Source: an uncultured bacterium (GTDB taxonomy: Bacteria > RBG-13-66-14). From it: a DNA stretch of 64,000 nucleotides. Location of the stretch: positions 7,459 to 71,458 of the forward strand of contig CAZOOP010000004.1 in the NCBI GenBank assembly GCA_964581465.1. The letters are read 5' to 3'. Positions 1 to 11,447 of the stretch are shown piece after piece. The notes under the pieces are model-generated. The model was given only the letters and a program-made list of their open reading frames with translations, searched no databases and was not told where the DNA came from. Both the position numbers and the translations under genes were made by a program. How positions within the stretch are numbered: the first letter of the stretch is position 1; each line of letters opens with the position of its first letter.

Positions 1-188
1 GAATAACCATGGTTCCTTCTCCTCCCCTCGGTTTGAAGCTGAGCGGCAAGGCAAAAAGAAGCTTGAGCATTTACCACTATTTGCCTATGCTGATAGAGTC
101 AAAGTTTGTATCGGAGCTTCGTGTCTTATGAAACAATCGAGCATGGGATTACGCAACGACATAACCTGACTTGGCTGGAGGTATGGCG

Positions 189-722
189 ATGGGCGAGAAC
201 CTCAAGGGTATTATTGTTATCGTCGCCCGGGAGTATTCGCGGAGCATTCTGGGTGAGAAGCGAACCAACGAGCTGCTCGAGGAGTGCGGTTTGGCCGGGC
301 AGACCTTCCTGGCCACCAAGGACTATCCCAACAAACTGGTGTTCAGCTTCATCACCCTGGTGGGACGCGAGCAGGGCATGAACATGCTCCAGGCCGTTCA
401 GGCCGGCGGGCGCTACTTCGCAAGCACCTACGGTCCGAAGAACTACCGGGCCTTCTTCCTGATCAACAACACCCCCAAGAAGGCCTTCGGCGGCTTCCAG
501 AAGCTGTTCTCCACGGCCACCGAGGGCCAGGAGGTCGGCAACTACGCGGCCATCACCACCAAGTGGGTCGATGACGACACCGTTCGCATCCGCTACGACT
601 CACCGCTGCAGAACACCGCCTACCCCAAGGGGCTGGCCGAGGGCCTGGGCGACTACTTCGGCCAGAAGCTGCGGATCCGCGATCTATCCAACATCGAGTT
701 CGAGGTGTCGCTTTCGGGTTGA
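189..722 (+). CDS. H-NOX-like small sensor-domain protein, paralog 1 of 4
   Basis: 177 codons. GGAGG lies 7 nt before ATG 189 (the track ORF opens at TTG 171). N-terminus is MGENLKGII. C-terminal IRYDSPLQNTAYPKGLAEGL parallels the H-NOX YxSxR / GLxEG region. Aligns over its full length with the next three genes. Confidence 0.8.
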   Translation: MGENLKGIIVIVAREYSRSILGEKRTNELLEECGLAGQTFLATKDYPNKLVFSFITLVGREQGMNMLQAVQAGGRYFASTYGPKNYRAFFLINNTPKKAFGGFQKLFSTATEGQEVGNYAAITTKWVDDDTVRIRYDSPLQNTAYPKGLAEGLGDYFGQKLRIRDLSNIEFEVSLSG

Positions 723-787
723 TCCGGTACCGTCTATTGATCGGCGTTCCGTTGGACTAAACCATTATCGCCAGATAGGAGAAGCAA

Positions 788-1321
788 TTGAGTGAAAACC
801 TGAAAGGGATCCTCATCATCGCCGCTCGGGAATACGCCCGGGAGGTTCTGGGTATGGAGAAAACCCGGCAACTACTTGATAAAAGCGGCCTGGGCGACAA
901 GACCATCCTGGCCACCAAGGACTACCCCAACCAATTGGGCTTCGCCTTCATCACCATGGTGGGTCAGGAAAAGGGCCTGAGCATGCTCGAGGCCGTCCAG
1001 GAGGGAGCGGCCTATTTCGCCAAAACCTACGCGCCCAAGAACTACCGCGCCTTCTACATCATCAACCGGGACTTGAAGAAGGCTTTGAACAACTTCCAGA
1101 AGATCTGCTCCATCGCACTGGAGGGTCAGGAGATCGGCAATTACGCCGCCATCGAGGTTCGCCGCACCGGCGACGACAGCTTTCGCATCCGCTACGACTC
1201 GCCGCTGCAGAACACCGCCTACCCCAAGGGGCTGGTTCAGGGTCTCAGTGAACACTATCAAACCCCGGTCCGTATTAGCGACATCTCGAACACCGAGTTC
1301 GAGGTCAAGCTGGCGGACTGA
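788..1321 (+). CDS. H-NOX-like small sensor-domain protein, paralog 2 of 4
   Basis: 177 codons. TTG start follows TAGGAGA. Shares the family motifs LKGI, DYPNQL, YAPKNYRAFY, NNFQK, EGQEIGNYAAI, RIRYDSP and GLVQGL. Confidence 0.8.
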   Translation: MSENLKGILIIAAREYAREVLGMEKTRQLLDKSGLGDKTILATKDYPNQLGFAFITMVGQEKGLSMLEAVQEGAAYFAKTYAPKNYRAFYIINRDLKKALNNFQKICSIALEGQEIGNYAAIEVRRTGDDSFRIRYDSPLQNTAYPKGLVQGLSEHYQTPVRISDISNTEFEVKLAD

Positions 1322-1472
1322 CATTCACCGAAGCGAAGCCCAAATCTCGACTGGCTGTCGCAACCGACCGTTGCTATACTATAGAGGAACCGCACAGCAA
1401 ACCCACCGACTGTGCGGTTTCGATTAACCAGCGCAGATCAGACACAAGCGAATGATAAGGAGCAAAGCATAG

Positions 1473-2006
1473 ATGGCCGAGACCCTCAAGGGCATGAGCC
1501 TGGTCGTTGCCCGGGAGTACTCCAAAGTGACACTGGGCGCGGAGAAAACACAACAGTTGCTGGAAGAATGCGGATTGGCCAGTAAGCCCATTATCGTTTC
1601 CAGGGACTACCCCAACCAGCTATTCTTCAGCCTGATAACCCTGATCGGCCGCGAGCAGGGTATCGATATGTTCGAGATCCTTCTTCGCGGCGGGCGCTTC
1701 TTCGCCGCCGACTACGCTCCCGAGAACTACAACTCCTTCTACGTGATCAATAACACCATCGGCAAGGCACTAAACAACTTCCAGCGTTTGTTCGCCCTGG
1801 CCACCGAGGGCCGGGAGATCGGCAACTACGCGGCCATCACTACCGAGTGGATCGATGACGACACCGTGCGCATCCGCTACGATTCACCGCTGCAGAACAC
1901 CTCCTATCCCAGAGGTCTGGCCGAGGGCCTGGGCGATTACTATGACAGAGCTCTGCAATTGCGAGAACTGAGCGAGATCGAGTTCTCCGTCCGGTTACGG
2001 AAGTGA
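1473..2006 (+). CDS. H-NOX-like small sensor-domain protein, paralog 3 of 4
   Basis: 177 codons. AAGGAG lies upstream of the ATG. Same motif set as paralogs 1 and 2. Confidence 0.8.
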   Translation: MAETLKGMSLVVAREYSKVTLGAEKTQQLLEECGLASKPIIVSRDYPNQLFFSLITLIGREQGIDMFEILLRGGRFFAADYAPENYNSFYVINNTIGKALNNFQRLFALATEGREIGNYAAITTEWIDDDTVRIRYDSPLQNTSYPRGLAEGLGDYYDRALQLRELSEIEFSVRLRK

Positions 2007-2063
2007 GATACGGCGGATCGCCGCCGGCGGTCCAGATTACCCTTAGCGAAAGGAATCGGGGAG

Positions 2064-2594
2064 ATGGGAGACCAACTCAAAGGCATCATTTTCATCGTGG
2101 CCCGCGAATACTCGAAACACACCTTGGGCGAAGAGCGCACCCGGGAGCTTCTCGCTCAGTGCGGTCTGGTTGACAAGTCCATCCTGGCCACCAAGGACTA
2201 TCCAAACAAGCTGCTGTTCGGCTTCATCGCCCTGCTCGGCAAGGATCACCAGATGAACCTGATGGAGGCCGTTGAGGAGGGCGGGCGTTACTTCGCCGCC
2301 ACCTATGCCCCGCAGAATTACCGCGCATTCTATATCGTCAACCGGAACATGAAAAAGGCGTTGAAGAACTTCTCCCGGATCTGCTCCATCGCCCTGGAGG
2401 GTCAGGAGATCGGCAACTACGCCGCCATCGAGGTGCGGCGGCGCGGCGAGAACACCTTCCGCGTCCACTACGAGTCACCCTTCGGCAGCACCGCTTATTC
2501 CAAGGGGCTTGTCGAGGGCCTGAGCGATTATTACCAGGCTCCGATCGAGATCAACGACATCTCCAGCAGCGAATTCGAGGTCAAGCTTCGCTGA
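2064..2594 (+). CDS. H-NOX-like small sensor-domain protein, paralog 4 of 4
   Basis: 176 codons. GGGGAG lies upstream of the ATG. Same motif set, with VHYESP in place of IRYDSP. Confidence 0.8.
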   Translation: MGDQLKGIIFIVAREYSKHTLGEERTRELLAQCGLVDKSILATKDYPNKLLFGFIALLGKDHQMNLMEAVEEGGRYFAATYAPQNYRAFYIVNRNMKKALKNFSRICSIALEGQEIGNYAAIEVRRRGENTFRVHYESPFGSTAYSKGLVEGLSDYYQAPIEINDISSSEFEVKLR

Positions 2595-2785
2595 TTGTCC
2601 GGCCGCCGCCGATGATCTCCCTCGAAAGAAGCTGCGCGGGACCGTTGGTGAATGGTTGATGTACGCGTAGGTGTTGTCGAGTATCTTGCACCTGGTTCAA
2701 TCCCATATCCCGACCGCGCTGGATGTGGGTCTCGCCGTTGAGGTTCTAGCCGGGTAGGGTTTCAATCCCCACTGCGGCGTTGATT

Positions 2786-3141
2786 GGGATTATCACTCGC
2801 ATAAGAACCGACTCATCCAGCTAATAGATTATCATTCAACGCTTTATAGCTCGTAGTCGTCGCCATTGTCATCCCGTTGCATTGTCATACCAATGTATGA
2901 CGGCGATATACCGGGGCTTCCCTTTAGTTCCGCTGGAAGCCTGAGGCTGTTGTTACCGCTCAGGATTCAACCAGGCTGTGGCTGAAGGATCTGTTGACGG
3001 CACTCCATTACCCGCTACAGAAGCTTCGAACGGTTATCCGTCTTCAATGGTTGACACCCCGCTGCGGCTAATCTCCGAGCACCATTCTCGAGGTGGCTTT
3101 CCTGGGTTGCGAATGTGTTGTTCATCTTCTGTGATGATCCC
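2786..3141. mobile_element. MITE-like non-autonomous element with IS1595-like terminal inverted repeats
   Basis: Starts GGGATTATCACTCG and ends TTCATCTTCTGTGATGATCCC. These are the same termini as the IS1595-like remnants at 4070 and 34020. It contains no ORF. Confidence 0.6.
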
Positions 3142-3184
3142 TTGTTTTGAGATTGCTAGCGGAAACGGGATTTATGCGATCCAG

Positions 3185-3508
3185 GGGATCGAATACCCTA
3201 TCCGGACCGAATCGTGCTTGTAATCTGCTGATAATTCTAGGATGATTCTCTGAGGCTCGTCACAGAACGGGCAGTTGAAAAGTGGCGGCATTAAAAGAGC
3301 GTTATCAGTCGAAAATCATGTTATCCGCGGGCTTGTTTTTTTCTCCGACAGCAAAGGGCTATTGACTCTTAGGTGTTGGAATAACAGGCAATAAGAGCAC
3401 GCTAAATGTATGCTGGGTCAAAAACCGAGCATTTCCGGGAAGTGAATACCAGCCCAACAAGGGTATCCCAATCAGCCTGATTAAGTCCGATCACGTACCA
3501 TGATGCCT
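3185..3508 (+). repeat. Repeat family B, copy 1 (related to 31165-32236 and 41881-42516)
   Basis: Shares three blocks with the other copies: GGGATCGAATACCC..ATCGTG.TTGTAATCTGCTGATAAT, ACGGGCAGTTGAAAAGTGGCG, and CCCAATCAGCCTGATT..GTCCGA.CACGT.CCATGATG. Confidence 0.6.
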
Positions 3509-3680
3509 GTAGATTATCTGCATATCAGCTCCAGTTCAGGCATTCCGGAGACTGCTCGATCACCCGTCCTTTACCATTAGCCCCGCCGGGGAATGGCTGA
3601 CCTAAGGGCACATGAAAACGGGCGGCCCCGGCGGGACCACCCGTTGCTTGTTTATGGCGGGGGCTTTGTTCCAGCCCCCG

Positions 3681-3757
3681 TGGTGGCGGAGAAGGGACTT
3701 GAACCCTTGACGCCACGGATATGAGCCGTGTGCTCTGACCGACTGAGCTACTCCGCC
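3681..3757 (-). tRNA. tRNA-Met (anticodon CAT). Elongator-type acceptor. An Ile2-type lysidine tRNA cannot be excluded.
   Basis: Reverse complement reads GGCGGAG-TA-GCTCAGTCGGTCAGAGC-A-CACGG-CTCATAT-CCGTG-GCGTC-AAGGG-TTCAAGT-CCCTT-CTCCGCC-ACCA. This gives a full cloverleaf with an encoded CCA. Confidence 0.93.
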
Positions 3758-3823
3758 GCACCTCGATCGTCACGATTGATCGCGGAGGGGTATTATAGGC
3801 CAGCCGGGGCGGTTTTGGCAAGG

Positions 3824-4015
3824 CTAGTAGCTGTAGAAGTAGCCGAAATCGCCCATCGAGTTGTTGATGGTGTTCATGCAGTCGATGTGGTTCTGCATCA
3901 TCAGCCCGCTCATCGCCTCGTCGTACTCCGAGGAGGAACCGCCTTCAACAGAAGGACCATCAGGATCAGGACGACACGCTTCATTGTTTCTCCTTTGGGT
4001 AGTATTTGCCGTCAT
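3824..4015 (-). CDS. Hypothetical small protein (63 aa frame). The start and frame are uncertain.
   Basis: ORF ends GDFGYFYSY. The only good SD (AAAGGAG) serves an ATG at 3984 in another frame, encoding MKRVVLILMVLLLK... (24 codons). This suggests a frameshift or a mis-assembled small secreted protein. Confidence 0.3.
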   Translation of the reverse strand: MTANTTQRRNNEACRPDPDGPSVEGGSSSEYDEAMSGLMMQNHIDCMNTINNSMGDFGYFYSY

Positions 4016-4069
4016 TAACCTACAATGAAAAGCACGGGTGGTGCGAAAAGTGAAATCGGGCTTTTCTTT

Positions 4070-4607
4070 GGGATTATCACCTAATCATGAACAAGCGCGA
4101 AGTGTGTTCCTGAGGTAGTCGGGAGTGTTTTCGTCGTCGCGATGGTTGAATCGGAACGATTTTTCACGGATAAAGAGCCTGACGTTACGTTTGAAGCCAC
4201 CGTGATAGGCCTTTAGCACAGCCTCGGGAGCTCTCTGGGCCGTTGATATGCACTTTGATCGCACCGACCAGGTGCTTGCTGTCACAGCGCTTGGGGAGGA
4301 TGACGCGGACCGCCGGGAGGCCGAGTCGGAACAGACGGGCTATCTCACTGCGGTTTTCCGGCGGCGGCTCGTTGCGTCGCCCCCGGGGACGATGGCTGAA
4401 CAACTTGCCGCAACGCTTGCACTTACGGCGCCCGTCGGCGCAGCGGTAGTGATAGTGGTAGTCGCACCTGGGACACTTGACGTGCCGGTCCCTCGTTCTG
4501 CTCTCCCCTGCCACATTGACAACGTTTTGTTGGCAGGAAAAAAACTTGCTCACGCCGACATAAGTACCCAACTGCAATAGCTGATGTTCATCTTATGTGA
4601 TGATCCC
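4070..4607 (-). mobile_element. IS1595-family element remnant, internally deleted
   Basis: Termini are GGGATTATCAC and GTGATGATCCC. It carries fragments of a zinc-ribbon/DDE transposase. About 540 bp is too short for an intact copy. Confidence 0.7.
4085..4577 (-). pseudogene. IS1595-family transposase, fragmented (two frames)
   Basis: The N-terminal Zn ribbon is CPRCDYHYHYRCADGRRKCKRCGKLFS. The C-terminal AYHGGFKRNVRLFIREKSFRFNHRDDE lies in a second frame. The catalytic core is missing. Confidence 0.7.
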
Positions 4608-4798
4608 TTTTTTTATATGTGGGTCCAAGGTGTCTGTATCCAGTCCCGGTGAGTTTGCGGCAGAGGGTGGAGCCGGGCCGTATTGCGCTGGACTGAGCGC
4701 TGTGATACCATACATGGACCGTGAACACTCTATGAGATAGATTGGTCGTCTTTTCTCGTTTTACTTACTGAATAATTACCTTGTGGAGCGAACGCCTC

Positions 4799-6103: not shown

Positions 6104-6814
6104 ATGCAACGTCTCACCGCGATGCTTCTGCTGGCGTTGGTTCTAATCGTCACTACCTCCGGCGCCGATGAATTCTTCGACGAGCGCTACGTCCAGGTTG
6201 TCGCCGGGGCGAGCTTCTTCCCGACCGTGACCATGGTCGTGGTCGGTGATATCGGCTCGGAGATTCTGCCGACGATGGAGTTCATCCAGCGTCACGCTCT
6301 CGGCCCCACGATCCAGCTCGTCGCCCCGGTGCGCGAGTGGCTCAAGGTAGGCGCCGCTTTCAGTTGGGCCTATGACAGCTTCGCTTACGAGGAAGAGGGC
6401 CGGATGGAGAGCGAATTCAACCTGCAGATGACGGCCTACAGCCTGGCCATCCAGGCGCCCTTCTCCATCTTCCGCAGCGACTGGCTCGATGTCGATATCG
6501 TGCCCGGCTTCAACTACTATGGCGCCTCGCACCGGCCCGACAGCATCATCGCCCACGGCGAGACCTATTCAGACGTCGATTACCGGGGCAGCGCCGAGTG
6601 GACGGGCACCGGCTTCTCCGGCTTCCTCTCCACCACCCTCTACTTCGGCGACCTGCTGGTCAAGCTCGACGGTGGCTGGATCGTCGGTGGTGTCGATGTC
6701 GACCGCAAGCTGTTCATCGAGGGCGACGGCGACGAGGAAAGCGATATCTTCATCGATCCCGCCTCCACCCTGAGCAACTTCCAGGTCAACGTGGGCGTCG
6801 GTTACTTCCTCTAG
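6104..6814 (+). CDS. Hypothetical outer-membrane beta-barrel-like secreted protein
   Basis: Signal peptide MQRLTAMLLLALVLIVTTSGA. Alternating beta-strand pattern with an aromatic C-terminus VGVGYFL. Confidence 0.7.
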   Translation: MQRLTAMLLLALVLIVTTSGADEFFDERYVQVVAGASFFPTVTMVVVGDIGSEILPTMEFIQRHALGPTIQLVAPVREWLKVGAAFSWAYDSFAYEEEGRMESEFNLQMTAYSLAIQAPFSIFRSDWLDVDIVPGFNYYGASHRPDSIIAHGETYSDVDYRGSAEWTGTGFSGFLSTTLYFGDLLVKLDGGWIVGGVDVDRKLFIEGDGDEESDIFIDPASTLSNFQVNVGVGYFL

Positions 6815-6899
6815 CGTTTCAGGTCGCGATAGAATCGGGGGCCGCGGCAACGGATGTGAAGCATCCGTGGCGGCCCCTTTGCTGTGGAGTCCGGCCGGT

Positions 6900-7826
6900 T
6901 TAGTTGGTGGGGATCAGCAGCCGGGCTTTCTCCGGGGGGCGGTCGGTGTCGACGTACCATTCGTTGCAGAGGTTGCGGTGCCCCAAACGGTCGGGGCCGA
7001 TCCCCAGGGAGAGCAGGCGGCGGCCGCTGTCCGCGGCGACCTCGATCCAGGTCTCGAAGCGCCCCTCGTCGTCGCAGGCTACGGGGACCCAGTCGTAAGG
7101 CGAGCGATCGACCTGCAGACTGGCGTAGCCGTCATCGAGTTGGCGGCCTAGCACTCGAACCAGGTATGTTTCCTCTGTCGGACCTGGTTCCACGGTTATC
7201 TCATCGATCTCGAAGACCCGGGTGGCGAAGTTCTCGGTTATATGCAGGCCCAGGTCACCGTCCTGGTAGCCCTTGATCACCCCCAGGCCGATGTAATTGA
7301 AGTTCTCGCGCAGCAGGTTGTCGCGGTGGCTGGGCGAGGCCATCAACTTGGAATGGGCCAGCTCGACCAACCGGCGCCAGTCCGGACTCCCGCCGATGTA
7401 CAGGCGGGCCAGGTTCTCGCCGACCTCGGCTTCGGTGATTCCCGTTCCCGCTATGCGGTCGCGGCAGGTTTCCCGGCCCGGCAGGGGTGAAAAGTGGGAG
7501 AAGTAATCCAGGGCGATCATCTCGCGGGAGTGGCCGCGCGCGGCCCGACGCAGGTCCTCGTCCATCTTGAGGGGCTGGAGGCCGAAACGGCGGCGGTCCT
7601 GATTGATCAGCTTCAGCAGGTAGTCCTCGGCCTCGCGCTCCCCGGCGATGCCACCGTGCGGCGGACTGTACTCTCCCAGAACGGCGCTGGAGAGCTGCGC
7701 CGGCTCCAGCTCGGTGAGGAATCCGGCCTGGGTCGAGTCCAGCTCATCCCCGGCGCAGCCGGAGAGGAGCATTGCCAGAGCGCTGCCGATCAGGACGAAC
7801 AGAGTTGTTCTGCTGATTATGTGCAT
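6900..7826 (-). CDS. CAP/SCP (YkwD-like) domain lipoprotein
   Basis: Lipobox in MHIISRTTLFVLIGSALAMLLSGC. CAP-domain stretch GHSREMIALDYFSHFSP...ASPSHRDNLL. The start is set at the internal ATG 7826. Confidence 0.8.
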   Translation of the reverse strand: MHIISRTTLFVLIGSALAMLLSGCAGDELDSTQAGFLTELEPAQLSSAVLGEYSPPHGGIAGEREAEDYLLKLINQDRRRFGLQPLKMDEDLRRAARGHSREMIALDYFSHFSPLPGRETCRDRIAGTGITEAEVGENLARLYIGGSPDWRRLVELAHSKLMASPSHRDNLLRENFNYIGLGVIKGYQDGDLGLHITENFATRVFEIDEITVEPGPTEETYLVRVLGRQLDDGYASLQVDRSPYDWVPVACDDEGRFETWIEVAADSGRRLLSLGIGPDRLGHRNLCNEWYVDTDRPPEKARLLIPTN

Positions 7827-10392: not shown

Positions 10393-10866
10393 ATGCCCAC
10401 TCCGGATCAGATCCGCGATGTGTTACTCTTCGCCGGTCTCGACGACCGCGAGCTACAGATCGTCGCCGACCAGCTCCAGACCGAGAAGCTAGCCGAGGAC
10501 CAGCCGATTTTCCACGAGGGCGACCCCGGCGACAAGTTCTACATCATCAACGAGGGGATGGTTTCCATCGCCCTGATCATCGAGGGCGTGGGCTCCGAGG
10601 AGCTGCTCTATCTTGAACCGCCGGCCTTCTTCGGCGAGATGGCCCTCATCGACGCCGAGCCGCGCTCGGCCTCGGCCATCTGCCGCCGGCCGACCACCCT
10701 GTTAAGCCTGGACAAGAATTCCTTCGAGCAGCTCATCGACAAGGACATCGACCTGGGCAACAAGCTGATGATCGGCCTGATCCGCACCTTCTGCACGCGT
10801 ATCCGCAAGTCCAACGAGAAGCTGCGCAACTACTACATGATCAACCGCGCCTTCCTGGGCGGTTAG
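10393..10866 (+). CDS. Cyclic-nucleotide-binding domain protein (stand-alone)
   Basis: Contains GDPGDKFYIINEG and the phosphate-binding cassette FFGEMALIDAEPRSASA. No DNA-binding or other output domain at 157 aa. Confidence 0.85.
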   Translation: MPTPDQIRDVLLFAGLDDRELQIVADQLQTEKLAEDQPIFHEGDPGDKFYIINEGMVSIALIIEGVGSEELLYLEPPAFFGEMALIDAEPRSASAICRRPTTLLSLDKNSFEQLIDKDIDLGNKLMIGLIRTFCTRIRKSNEKLRNYYMINRAFLGG

Positions 10867-10979: not shown

Positions 10980-11447
10980 GTGGATATCCCGGATGTGCTC
11001 AAGAAGACCTACCTCTTCTACACCCTCAACAACGAGGAGCTGGCTCAACTGGCCGCCAAGGCCCGGTCGGAGAGCTTCGACAAGGGCCAGGTCATCTTCC
11101 GCGAGGGCGACGAGGGCGGCTCCCTCTACATCATCCGCAGCGGCAAGGTCAATGTGGAGAAGAACCTGAGCCAGGGCGTGGACGCCGTACTCGTCCAACT
11201 CGGCCAGTTCTTCTTCTTCGGCGAGATCTCCCTCTTCGACGGCGGCAAGCGCTCGGCCACCGTCTCAGCCGTCGAGCCCACCGAGTGCCTGATCCTCGAT
11301 AAAGCCGCCTTCTGGGCCGCCATGATGGCCAATCCCCAGTCCGCCCACAAAGTCTACCGAGCCATACTCAGCTTCCACTCCAACGCCATCCGCCGCGCCA
11401 ACGAACGCTTCCGCAACTTCCTGGGCCAGGCTCTGGACAACATCTGA
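10980..11447 (+). CDS. Cyclic-nucleotide-binding domain protein (stand-alone), paralog
   Basis: Contains GDEGGSLYIIRSG and FFGEISLFDGGKRSATV. 155 aa. Confidence 0.85.
   Translation: MDIPDVLKKTYLFYTLNNEELAQLAAKARSESFDKGQVIFREGDEGGSLYIIRSGKVNVEKNLSQGVDAVLVQLGQFFFFGEISLFDGGKRSATVSAVEPTECLILDKAAFWAAMMANPQSAHKVYRAILSFHSNAIRRANERFRNFLGQALDNI

Follow-up and report, generated by a model that had tools for sequence, protein, structure and literature searches.

The H-NOX domain is the textbook haem-based sensor of NO and O2. Its fold consists of seven helices and a four-stranded antiparallel sheet; a histidine on helix alpha-F (Tt His102, or His105 in the beta1 subunit of soluble guanylate cyclase, sGC) ligates the haem iron, the YxSxR motif binds the haem propionates, and a conserved proline (Tt Pro115) touches and distorts the haem. 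Here we describe a locus at positions 189-2594 of a 64,000-nucleotide stretch of DNA (hereafter the window) from the genome of an uncultured member of the Coatesbacteria (3.40 Mb in 83 contigs, rated 100% complete with 0.4% contamination), in which four consecutive genes code for stand-alone proteins of the H-NOX family (HNOB in Pfam) that have lost all three of these haem-holding features.

Among the described systems closest to this array are the stand-alone bacterial H-NOX proteins (Shewanella oneidensis SO2144/HnoX, Nostoc Alr2278 and the H-NOX domain of Thermoanaerobacter Tar4H), which show full-length homology to the array proteins, are of comparable size (~175-190 aa) and share their predicted fold at template modelling (TM) scores of 0.80-0.84. 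Both have an N-terminal (M/L)KG and the GLxxG helix, keep Tyr and Ser in the YxSxR motif and carry a Tyr where Tyr140 lies in Tt H-NOX. Unlike these relatives, the array proteins lack the proximal His, the Pro-Pro pair, the Arg of YxSxR and the Cys/His residues of the zinc site; they are encoded as three or four tandem paralogs and have no adjacent kinase, diguanylate cyclase/phosphodiesterase or methyl-accepting chemotaxis protein (MCP). A second parallel is offered by the “pseudo-H-NOX” of sGC alpha, which has lost its haem-ligating residues, binds no haem and works beside a related H-NOX module (PMC8196705). It resembles the array proteins in being an H-NOX-fold module devoid of haem-ligating residues; however, it belongs to a multidomain eukaryotic enzyme that acts as a heterodimeric cyclase, whereas the array proteins are prokaryotic and stand-alone, with no evident haem-bearing partner in the array. 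Further, an N-terminal extension fills the pocket in sGC alpha, whereas only four residues precede the (L)KG of the array proteins, and our model fits the sGC alpha structure poorly (6jt0_A, TM 0.45). In sGC beta1, the H105F mutant serves as the model of apo-sGC (PMC10522487).

The DUF2378/TIGR02265 “Mxa” and V4R families are likewise of similar size, related to H-NOX and without haem ligands, but the array proteins score above threshold for HNOB only. As the nearest relatives of the array proteins in an exhaustive hidden Markov model (HMM) search are canonical His-bearing H-NOX proteins, the loss in the array is separate from, and more recent than, that in these families. Finally, a haem-free H-NOX of Vibrio cholerae functions without haem, as we propose for the array proteins, through Zn/Cys redox sensing (PMC7108781). 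That sensor needs a Cys-rich zinc site (four Cys/His in the C-terminal subdomain), which the array proteins do not have, as detailed below.

Organization of the array and membership in the HNOB family

The array and its immediate surroundings comprise the following features (window coordinates):

1-188, plus strand: AT-rich 3' end of the ~950-nt intergenic region that separates the array from a divergent orphan gene (142 aa)
189-722, plus strand: paralog 1, 177 aa, F-type (Phe107 at the proximal-His column); HNOB E 2.1e-12, 47.7 bits
788-1321, plus strand: paralog 2, 177 aa, TTG start, C-type (Cys107); HNOB E 6.6e-13
1386-1421, plus strand: stable hairpin with a 13-bp stem in the spacer between paralogs 2 and 3
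1473-2006, plus strand: paralog 3, 177 aa, F-type (Phe107); HNOB E 2.4e-10
2064-2594, plus strand: paralog 4, 176 aa, C-type (Cys107); HNOB E 1.4e-14, 54.8 bits

A preliminary description of this DNA had reported four head-to-tail genes with gaps of 57-151 nt, each with its own Shine-Dalgarno site. The open reading frames (ORFs) confirm their coordinates and lengths, with spacers of 65, 151 and 57 nt, and a purine-rich Shine-Dalgarno-like site precedes each gene (GGAGG at 177-181, AGGAG at 777-781, AAGGAG at 1457-1462 and AAAGGAA at 2049-2055). For paralog 1, we take the ATG at 189 rather than that at 183 as the conserved start, because position 183 is occupied by GTG in two orthologous loci. 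The four paralogs align over their full length with no internal gaps, share 62 invariant columns, including all of the conserved blocks originally listed, and are 48-64% identical to each other. A tblastn search of the whole assembly recovered only these four copies and one distant HNOB gene on another contig. The GC content at third codon positions (GC3) of the array genes is 0.79-0.88, a genome-typical value that speaks against a horizontal origin. Paralogs 2 and 3 are separated by an unusually long spacer (151 nt), which has a folding energy of -39.7 kcal/mol (z -2.58 relative to shuffled sequences); its hairpin, which a consensus terminator scan did not pick up, may be an attenuator or an RNA-stabilizing element ahead of the genus-specific paralog 3.

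The Pfam HNOB profile (PF07700) matches all four proteins across profile positions 1-162 of 163, with 41-55 bits against a cut-off of 25.5 bits and E-values from 1e-10 to 1e-14. An HNOB match is also recovered by a six-frame search of the genome, and a profile built from the four paralogs reaches Shewanella H-NOX structures at E ~6e-6. In the Pfam scan of the four paralogs, DUF2378 (PF09536) remained sub-threshold at 11.7 bits (cut-off 22.2) and V4R (PF02830) gave no match at E<=10; TIGR02265 was also sub-threshold, at 12.8-14.3 bits (cut-off 25), the DUF2378 and TIGR02265 matches having E-values of 0.03-0.2. Membership in a defence system was considered and set aside, with no meaningful PADLOC match for the paralogs or the orphan neighbour.

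An AlphaFold model of paralog 4, based on an alignment of 95 sequences that included distant relatives, attained a predicted local distance difference test (pLDDT) value of 91.7 and a predicted TM score of 0.88, and was weak only at residues 111-120, the signature loop of the clade. When this model was compared with the PDB using Foldseek, the significant matches, like the top 46, were all H-NOX or sGC beta, the best being H-NOX proteins with TM 0.80-0.84 and E 1e-9; they include Nostoc 2o09 and 3tfd, Shewanella 4u99 and Tt 1u4h, at 14-19% identity. A model from eight family sequences alone had a pLDDT of 61, yet the H-NOX order of helices and strands was present in it. The full-length HNOB match, the confident model and the restriction of the best PDB matches to H-NOX together support the predicted H-NOX fold of the array proteins, and the H-NOX-like layout that had been noticed from the sequence is upheld, no different fold having emerged from these comparisons.

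Loss of the haem-holding residues

The residue comparison uses an alignment of Tt and Nostoc H-NOX, 18 array proteins and 85 canonical relatives. The column of the proximal His (Tt His102) is occupied by His in 81 of the 85 relatives, and by either Phe (8/18, including paralogs 1 and 3) or Cys (10/18, including paralogs 2 and 4) in the array proteins. This column corresponds to residue 107, a placement on which MAFFT and a gap-free count from the YxS motif agree; one HMMER alignment moves it to residue 108 (Ser/Ala), where His is likewise never found. The preliminary description had equated it with the Q/S of an NF(Q/S)(K/R) block, which lies three or four residues too early. Nevertheless, the loss of the proximal His that it had claimed stands, because His is missing altogether from paralogs 1 and 3. 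The haem-contact Pro-Pro pair (Tt Pro114-Pro115) is replaced by Tyr119-Ala120 in all 18 array proteins. Similarly, the Arg of YxSxR (Tt Arg135), which is found in 79 of the 85 relatives, is Leu (13/18) or Phe (5/18) in the array, as had been read directly from the four genes. A His or YxSxR that might have been concealed by faulty alignment was sought, and none came to light in any of the 18 array proteins.

Other elements of the site are retained. Tyr131 and Ser133 of the Tt YxSxR motif correspond to the invariant Tyr136 and Ser138 of the array proteins, and the position of the distal Tyr140 of the O2-binding Tt H-NOX is the invariant Tyr145. No Cys or His column is invariant among the array proteins, and paralogs 1 and 3, besides having zero histidines, possess a single Cys (Cys33); hence, the Zn/Cys redox site of the Vibrio/Shewanella H-NOX proteins is absent. 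We infer from these residue losses that the array proteins do not hold haem in the canonical H-NOX manner. Of the initial label of a haem-free ligand-binding variant, the loss of haem-ligand residues is thus sustained, whereas “haem-free,” which was derived from that loss, reaches beyond it. With the three tested H-NOX features failing, the array proteins are best filed as a derived haem-ligand-less subfamily of HNOB and not as H-NOX sensors.

Distribution, phylogeny and selection

To judge from its sequence distribution, the array is a rare lineage-specific offshoot of the HNOB family. When 1.84 billion representatives clustered at 50% identity were searched exhaustively by HMM, the whole array clade amounted to one cluster (343 bits), followed by a 143-aa protein at 75 bits and then by ~105 canonical stand-alone H-NOX proteins at 35-64 bits; a word-indexed search of 5.8 billion proteins produced only seven clusters. 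Across the phylum (25 species genomes), HNOB genes are limited to one family, within which four array copies occur in both genomes of the source genus, a second genus (genome G023) also bears the array, and a third genus has one canonical copy. The array is found as well in a Candidatus Coatesbacteria metagenome-assembled genome (WJMB01000305.1, 97% identity), and arrays on metagenome contigs have three genes (L003 and L005) or four (L006), with no additional ones in a scan of such contigs. A lone intact member of the clade was never seen, the smallest case being G023, with one intact copy beside a frameshifted copy. This second copy (G023:C11 34600-35120, minus strand; ~6598-7124 of locus L019) is a hybrid of two paralog types, its N-terminal part resembling one and its C-terminal part the other, and no third copy is present; the arrangement reflects either an assembly collapse or unequal recombination among the tandem genes. 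The literature that we searched contains no description of a prokaryotic His-less HNOB clade.

Paralogs 1, 2 and 4 are orthologous to copies 1, 3 and 2, respectively, of the three-gene arrays (68, 77 and 78% identity), and paralog 3, which has no counterpart in them, stems from a duplication of the paralog-1 lineage specific to the genus (support 100/90 for its pairing with paralog 1). In a maximum-likelihood tree, the array is united on a long stem (support 100/99) with a small sister clade (G023:C42, P0009 and P0121) in which Tyr occupies the His column and YxSxR is replaced by Y-x-T-x-L. This monophyly fits a history in which the haem residues were lost once, ahead of the tandem expansion, though long-branch attraction may still lie behind the grouping. 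The genes of the sister clade (G023:C42 6118-6636 in locus L020, and the Logan contigs L007 and L008) are single-copy and code for 172-aa proteins or a 143-aa N-truncated form. They are equally rare (two clusters in 5.8 billion proteins), and their neighbours (DUF2085, HEAT repeat and XhoI) are uninformative.

Between orthologues, the ratio of nonsynonymous to synonymous substitution rates (dN/dS) is 0.07-0.10 for paralog 1, 0.10-0.11 for paralog 2, 0.11-0.12 for paralog 3 and 0.26 for paralog 4, and none of the four ORFs is disrupted in any of three independent assemblies from the source genus. Given these ratios and the genome-typical GC3, the array genes are evidently functional native genes under purifying selection.

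Genomic neighbourhood

The features that surround the array are the following (window coordinates unless stated otherwise):

Contig C4 6268-6696 (outside the window), minus strand: orphan gene of 142 aa, ~950 nt left of the array and divergent from it
3684-3757, minus strand: tRNA (Rfam, 69 bits)
4185-4577, minus strand: zinc-ribbon transposase-like ORF with no Pfam match
10393-10866 and 10980-11447: two adjacent stand-alone cyclic nucleotide monophosphate (cNMP)-binding proteins (PF00027, E 5e-22 and 1.5e-23) with no output domain

No histidine kinase, GGDEF/EAL domain, cyclase, MCP or other effector adjoins the array in the window, its left flank or the loci L003-L006 and L019; the absence of a fused or adjacent output domain, as first reported for the window, thereby extends to six loci. 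Two neighbours are conserved: an aldehyde dehydrogenase, which lies further upstream, and the divergent orphan gene, which codes for 140-153 aa. A minus-strand gene had been thought to start at position 10 of the window. The ORFs at that point are, however, at most 51 aa long, and the nearest real gene is the orphan, ~950 nt upstream of the array. This gene is present in 3/3 array-bearing genomes and 0/22 others (25 tested), is always adjacent to the array and divergent, and forms only two clusters in 5.8 billion proteins. Its product has no Pfam, PADLOC or significant PDB match. Its interpretation as a UvrC GIY-YIG-like protein was rejected: the match is sub-threshold (E 0.2) and, while a GVY...YAG motif is present, the candidate catalytic Arg is unconserved in the other genus.

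The ~950 nt that separate the orphan from the array have a GC content of 46%, versus 63% for the genome, are unique in the genome, contain no repeats and no ORF of more than 73 aa, and are conserved only within the genus, not between genera. A riboswitch or leader RNA that might have hinted at a ligand was sought in the 1.1 kb upstream and dismissed, with no Rfam match at E<=1 and no conservation of the region between genera. Likewise, no consensus sigma-70 or sigma-54 promoter was found upstream of the array. The genera do not share the same context downstream of the array; the window has the tRNA and insertion sequence debris there, followed by tyrS, and positions 2600-4700 are gene-poor, with a lower GC content than the rest of the window. 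The cNMP-binding pair, to which the preliminary description had drawn attention at a distance of 8 kb, is real in both its members, but a link with the array was discarded, as the 14 kb of sequence that surround the array in the other genus contain no homologue of the pair.

Haem metabolism of the source organism

Neither HemB nor cytochrome bd was found in the source genome, and HemC and ferrochelatase are absent from 24 of the 25 phylum genomes, all array-bearers included; the controls behaved as expected. In the sole exception, G005, HemC and ferrochelatase lie together on contig C27, which could reflect contamination or transfer. Taking the absence of haem synthesis genes together with two multihaem c-type cytochrome-like ORFs in the source genome (six CXXCH motifs on contig C60 and four on contig C50), the lineage looks haem-auxotrophic and may still use scavenged haem. 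The only canonical H-NOX of the genome lies outside the window (contig C20 36486-36923, minus strand; 3487-3924 of locus L002; HNOB E 7e-29). It keeps the His, PPRF, YxSxR and an MKGII start, adjoins a major facilitator superfamily (MFS) transporter and has no effector neighbour, and it is without ~40 internal residues (roughly 8-48) relative to an intact 171-aa copy in a sister genus.

The cavity and the two classes of paralogs

The pocket positions considered here are based on the Tt H-NOX structure and were mapped by alignment, rather than taken from the coordinates of our model. Across the 18 array sequences from two genera, 52 columns are invariant, and invariance is concentrated at the pocket-equivalent positions (12/19, against 40/158 elsewhere; p=0.002). 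Six of these positions are invariant Ala, and the summed side-chain volume at the pocket lies ~200 cubic angstroms below the canonical mean; hence, the cavity is not plugged by bulky residues. The paralogs fall into two classes, with Phe107/Thr111 and Cys107/Leu111, respectively. These two positions, one helical turn apart, co-vary and are among the few that cleanly separate the Phe-type from the Cys-type paralogs. The exchange of large and small residues between them looks like packing compensation, which argues against Cys107 as a metal ligand. Along the array, the classes alternate in the order F, C, F, C.

Proposed function and alternatives

Taking these observations together, we favour, with somewhat better than even confidence, the proposal that the array proteins are haem-independent small-ligand-binding modules of the H-NOX fold. 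They would work jointly, possibly in oligomers that combine F- and C-type paralogs, and would signal through contact with other proteins. They would be cytoplasmic stand-alone proteins descended from canonical haem H-NOX sensors, in which the proximal His, the Pro-Pro pair and the propionate-binding Arg would have been lost in the common ancestor of the array clade and its sister clade. The cavity that once took haem is now lined by invariant Tyr, Phe and Ala; it would most likely accept a different hydrophobic or aromatic small molecule, and its occupancy would be relayed via protein-protein contacts instead of a fused or adjacent enzyme. As the paralogs are old, individually conserved, always co-located and of two classes, they probably act together, plausibly in mixed oligomers. 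In sum, we infer an absence of haem binding, a non-haem ligand, hetero-oligomers and a signalling or carrier role, with “haem-independent” best read at least in the sense of His-independent.

Several observations weigh against this proposal. The confident AlphaFold model leans on an alignment dominated by canonical H-NOX proteins, the family-only alignment having yielded the much lower pLDDT given above. A packed core would likewise show conservation at the pocket positions, and small pocket residues could also allow an inward collapse of the helices. Haem is still retained by H-NOX proteins mutated in the cavity, So H103G being one example (PDB 2kil), and the array proteins have an invariant Tyr136, Ser138, Tyr119 and Tyr145, along with the Cys at the proximal column in 10/18. 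The two multihaem cytochrome-like ORFs mean that scavenged haem may be present in the cell. The array is limited to two genera, which makes arguments from co-occurrence weak.

The retained Tyr and Ser residues and the possible supply of haem are the points from which the best-surviving alternative draws, namely, that scavenged haem or another porphyrin is held via Cys107 in paralogs 2 and 4, via Tyr (that of the sister clade, or Tyr119/Tyr145) and via the retained Tyr136/Ser138. The proteins would then serve as a cytoplasmic haem buffer, chaperone or availability sensor, with the Phe-type paralogs as non-binding partners, as sGC alpha is to beta. A pocket not filled by bulky residues, the Tyr at the His column of the sister clade, the absence of HemB, HemC and ferrochelatase and the alternating order of the array would all suit such a role. 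However, no member retains the propionate salt-bridge Arg or the prolines that contact the haem, Cys107 co-varies with Leu111 in the manner of a packing residue, 8 of the 18 proteins have Phe, the very substitution that makes apo-sGC, and no haem-uptake genes or haem chaperones occur in the array neighbourhood. We regard this alternative as unlikely, though it is the main rival. A more specific form of it strikes us as decidedly doubtful. In this form, a haem auxotroph would have turned the array into a multi-subunit cytoplasmic holder of scavenged haem or another tetrapyrrole, ligated by Cys (paralogs 2 and 4) or Tyr in place of His, with the Phe-type paralogs 1 and 3 as non-binding partners; if true, the fold would have gained a new ligation mode, and sGC alpha/beta pairing would have a stand-alone counterpart in prokaryotes.

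Rather improbable, in our estimate, is a second alternative, in which the proteins would be ligand-free pseudo-H-NOX scaffolds with a collapsed pocket that form hetero-oligomers with an unlinked partner or with the product of the orphan gene. The precedent of sGC alpha (PMC8196705), the closer helix packing that the six invariant pocket Ala could permit and the strict association of the orphan with the array speak in its favour. Set against these, the pocket positions are more conserved than the remainder of the protein and include polar Tyr and Ser that a collapsed hydrophobic core would not need, and the co-occurrence of orphan and array spans only two genera, in which a shared island may be enough to account for it. 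That the genes are decaying, functionless relics of a haem H-NOX family, as the internal deletion in the canonical H-NOX of the genome and the frameshifted hybrid copy in one genome of the other genus might suggest, is very improbable in view of the four intact ORFs in three independent same-genus assemblies, the dN/dS of 0.07-0.26, the 52 invariant columns over 18 sequences and the native GC3.

Significance

Haem-less proteins of the H-NOX fold are already known in principle (sGC alpha and DUF2378), and the clade described here is very narrow; it is thus useful more than surprising. What is specific to it is the recent independent loss from canonical H-NOX, the fixed multi-paralog array, the orphan partner gene and the absence of an effector. 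In a family whose nearest members keep the proximal His in 81 of 85 cases, the array represents a selectively maintained natural offshoot without the three haem-holding features, duplicated into a fixed set of paralogs. These small, expressible proteins (~177 aa each) are suited to probing non-haem ligands, alternative ligation and hetero-oligomer signalling. With its setting in a phylum that lacks haem synthesis, the array amounts to a naturally occurring test of what the cavity of H-NOX can do without a His-bound haem.

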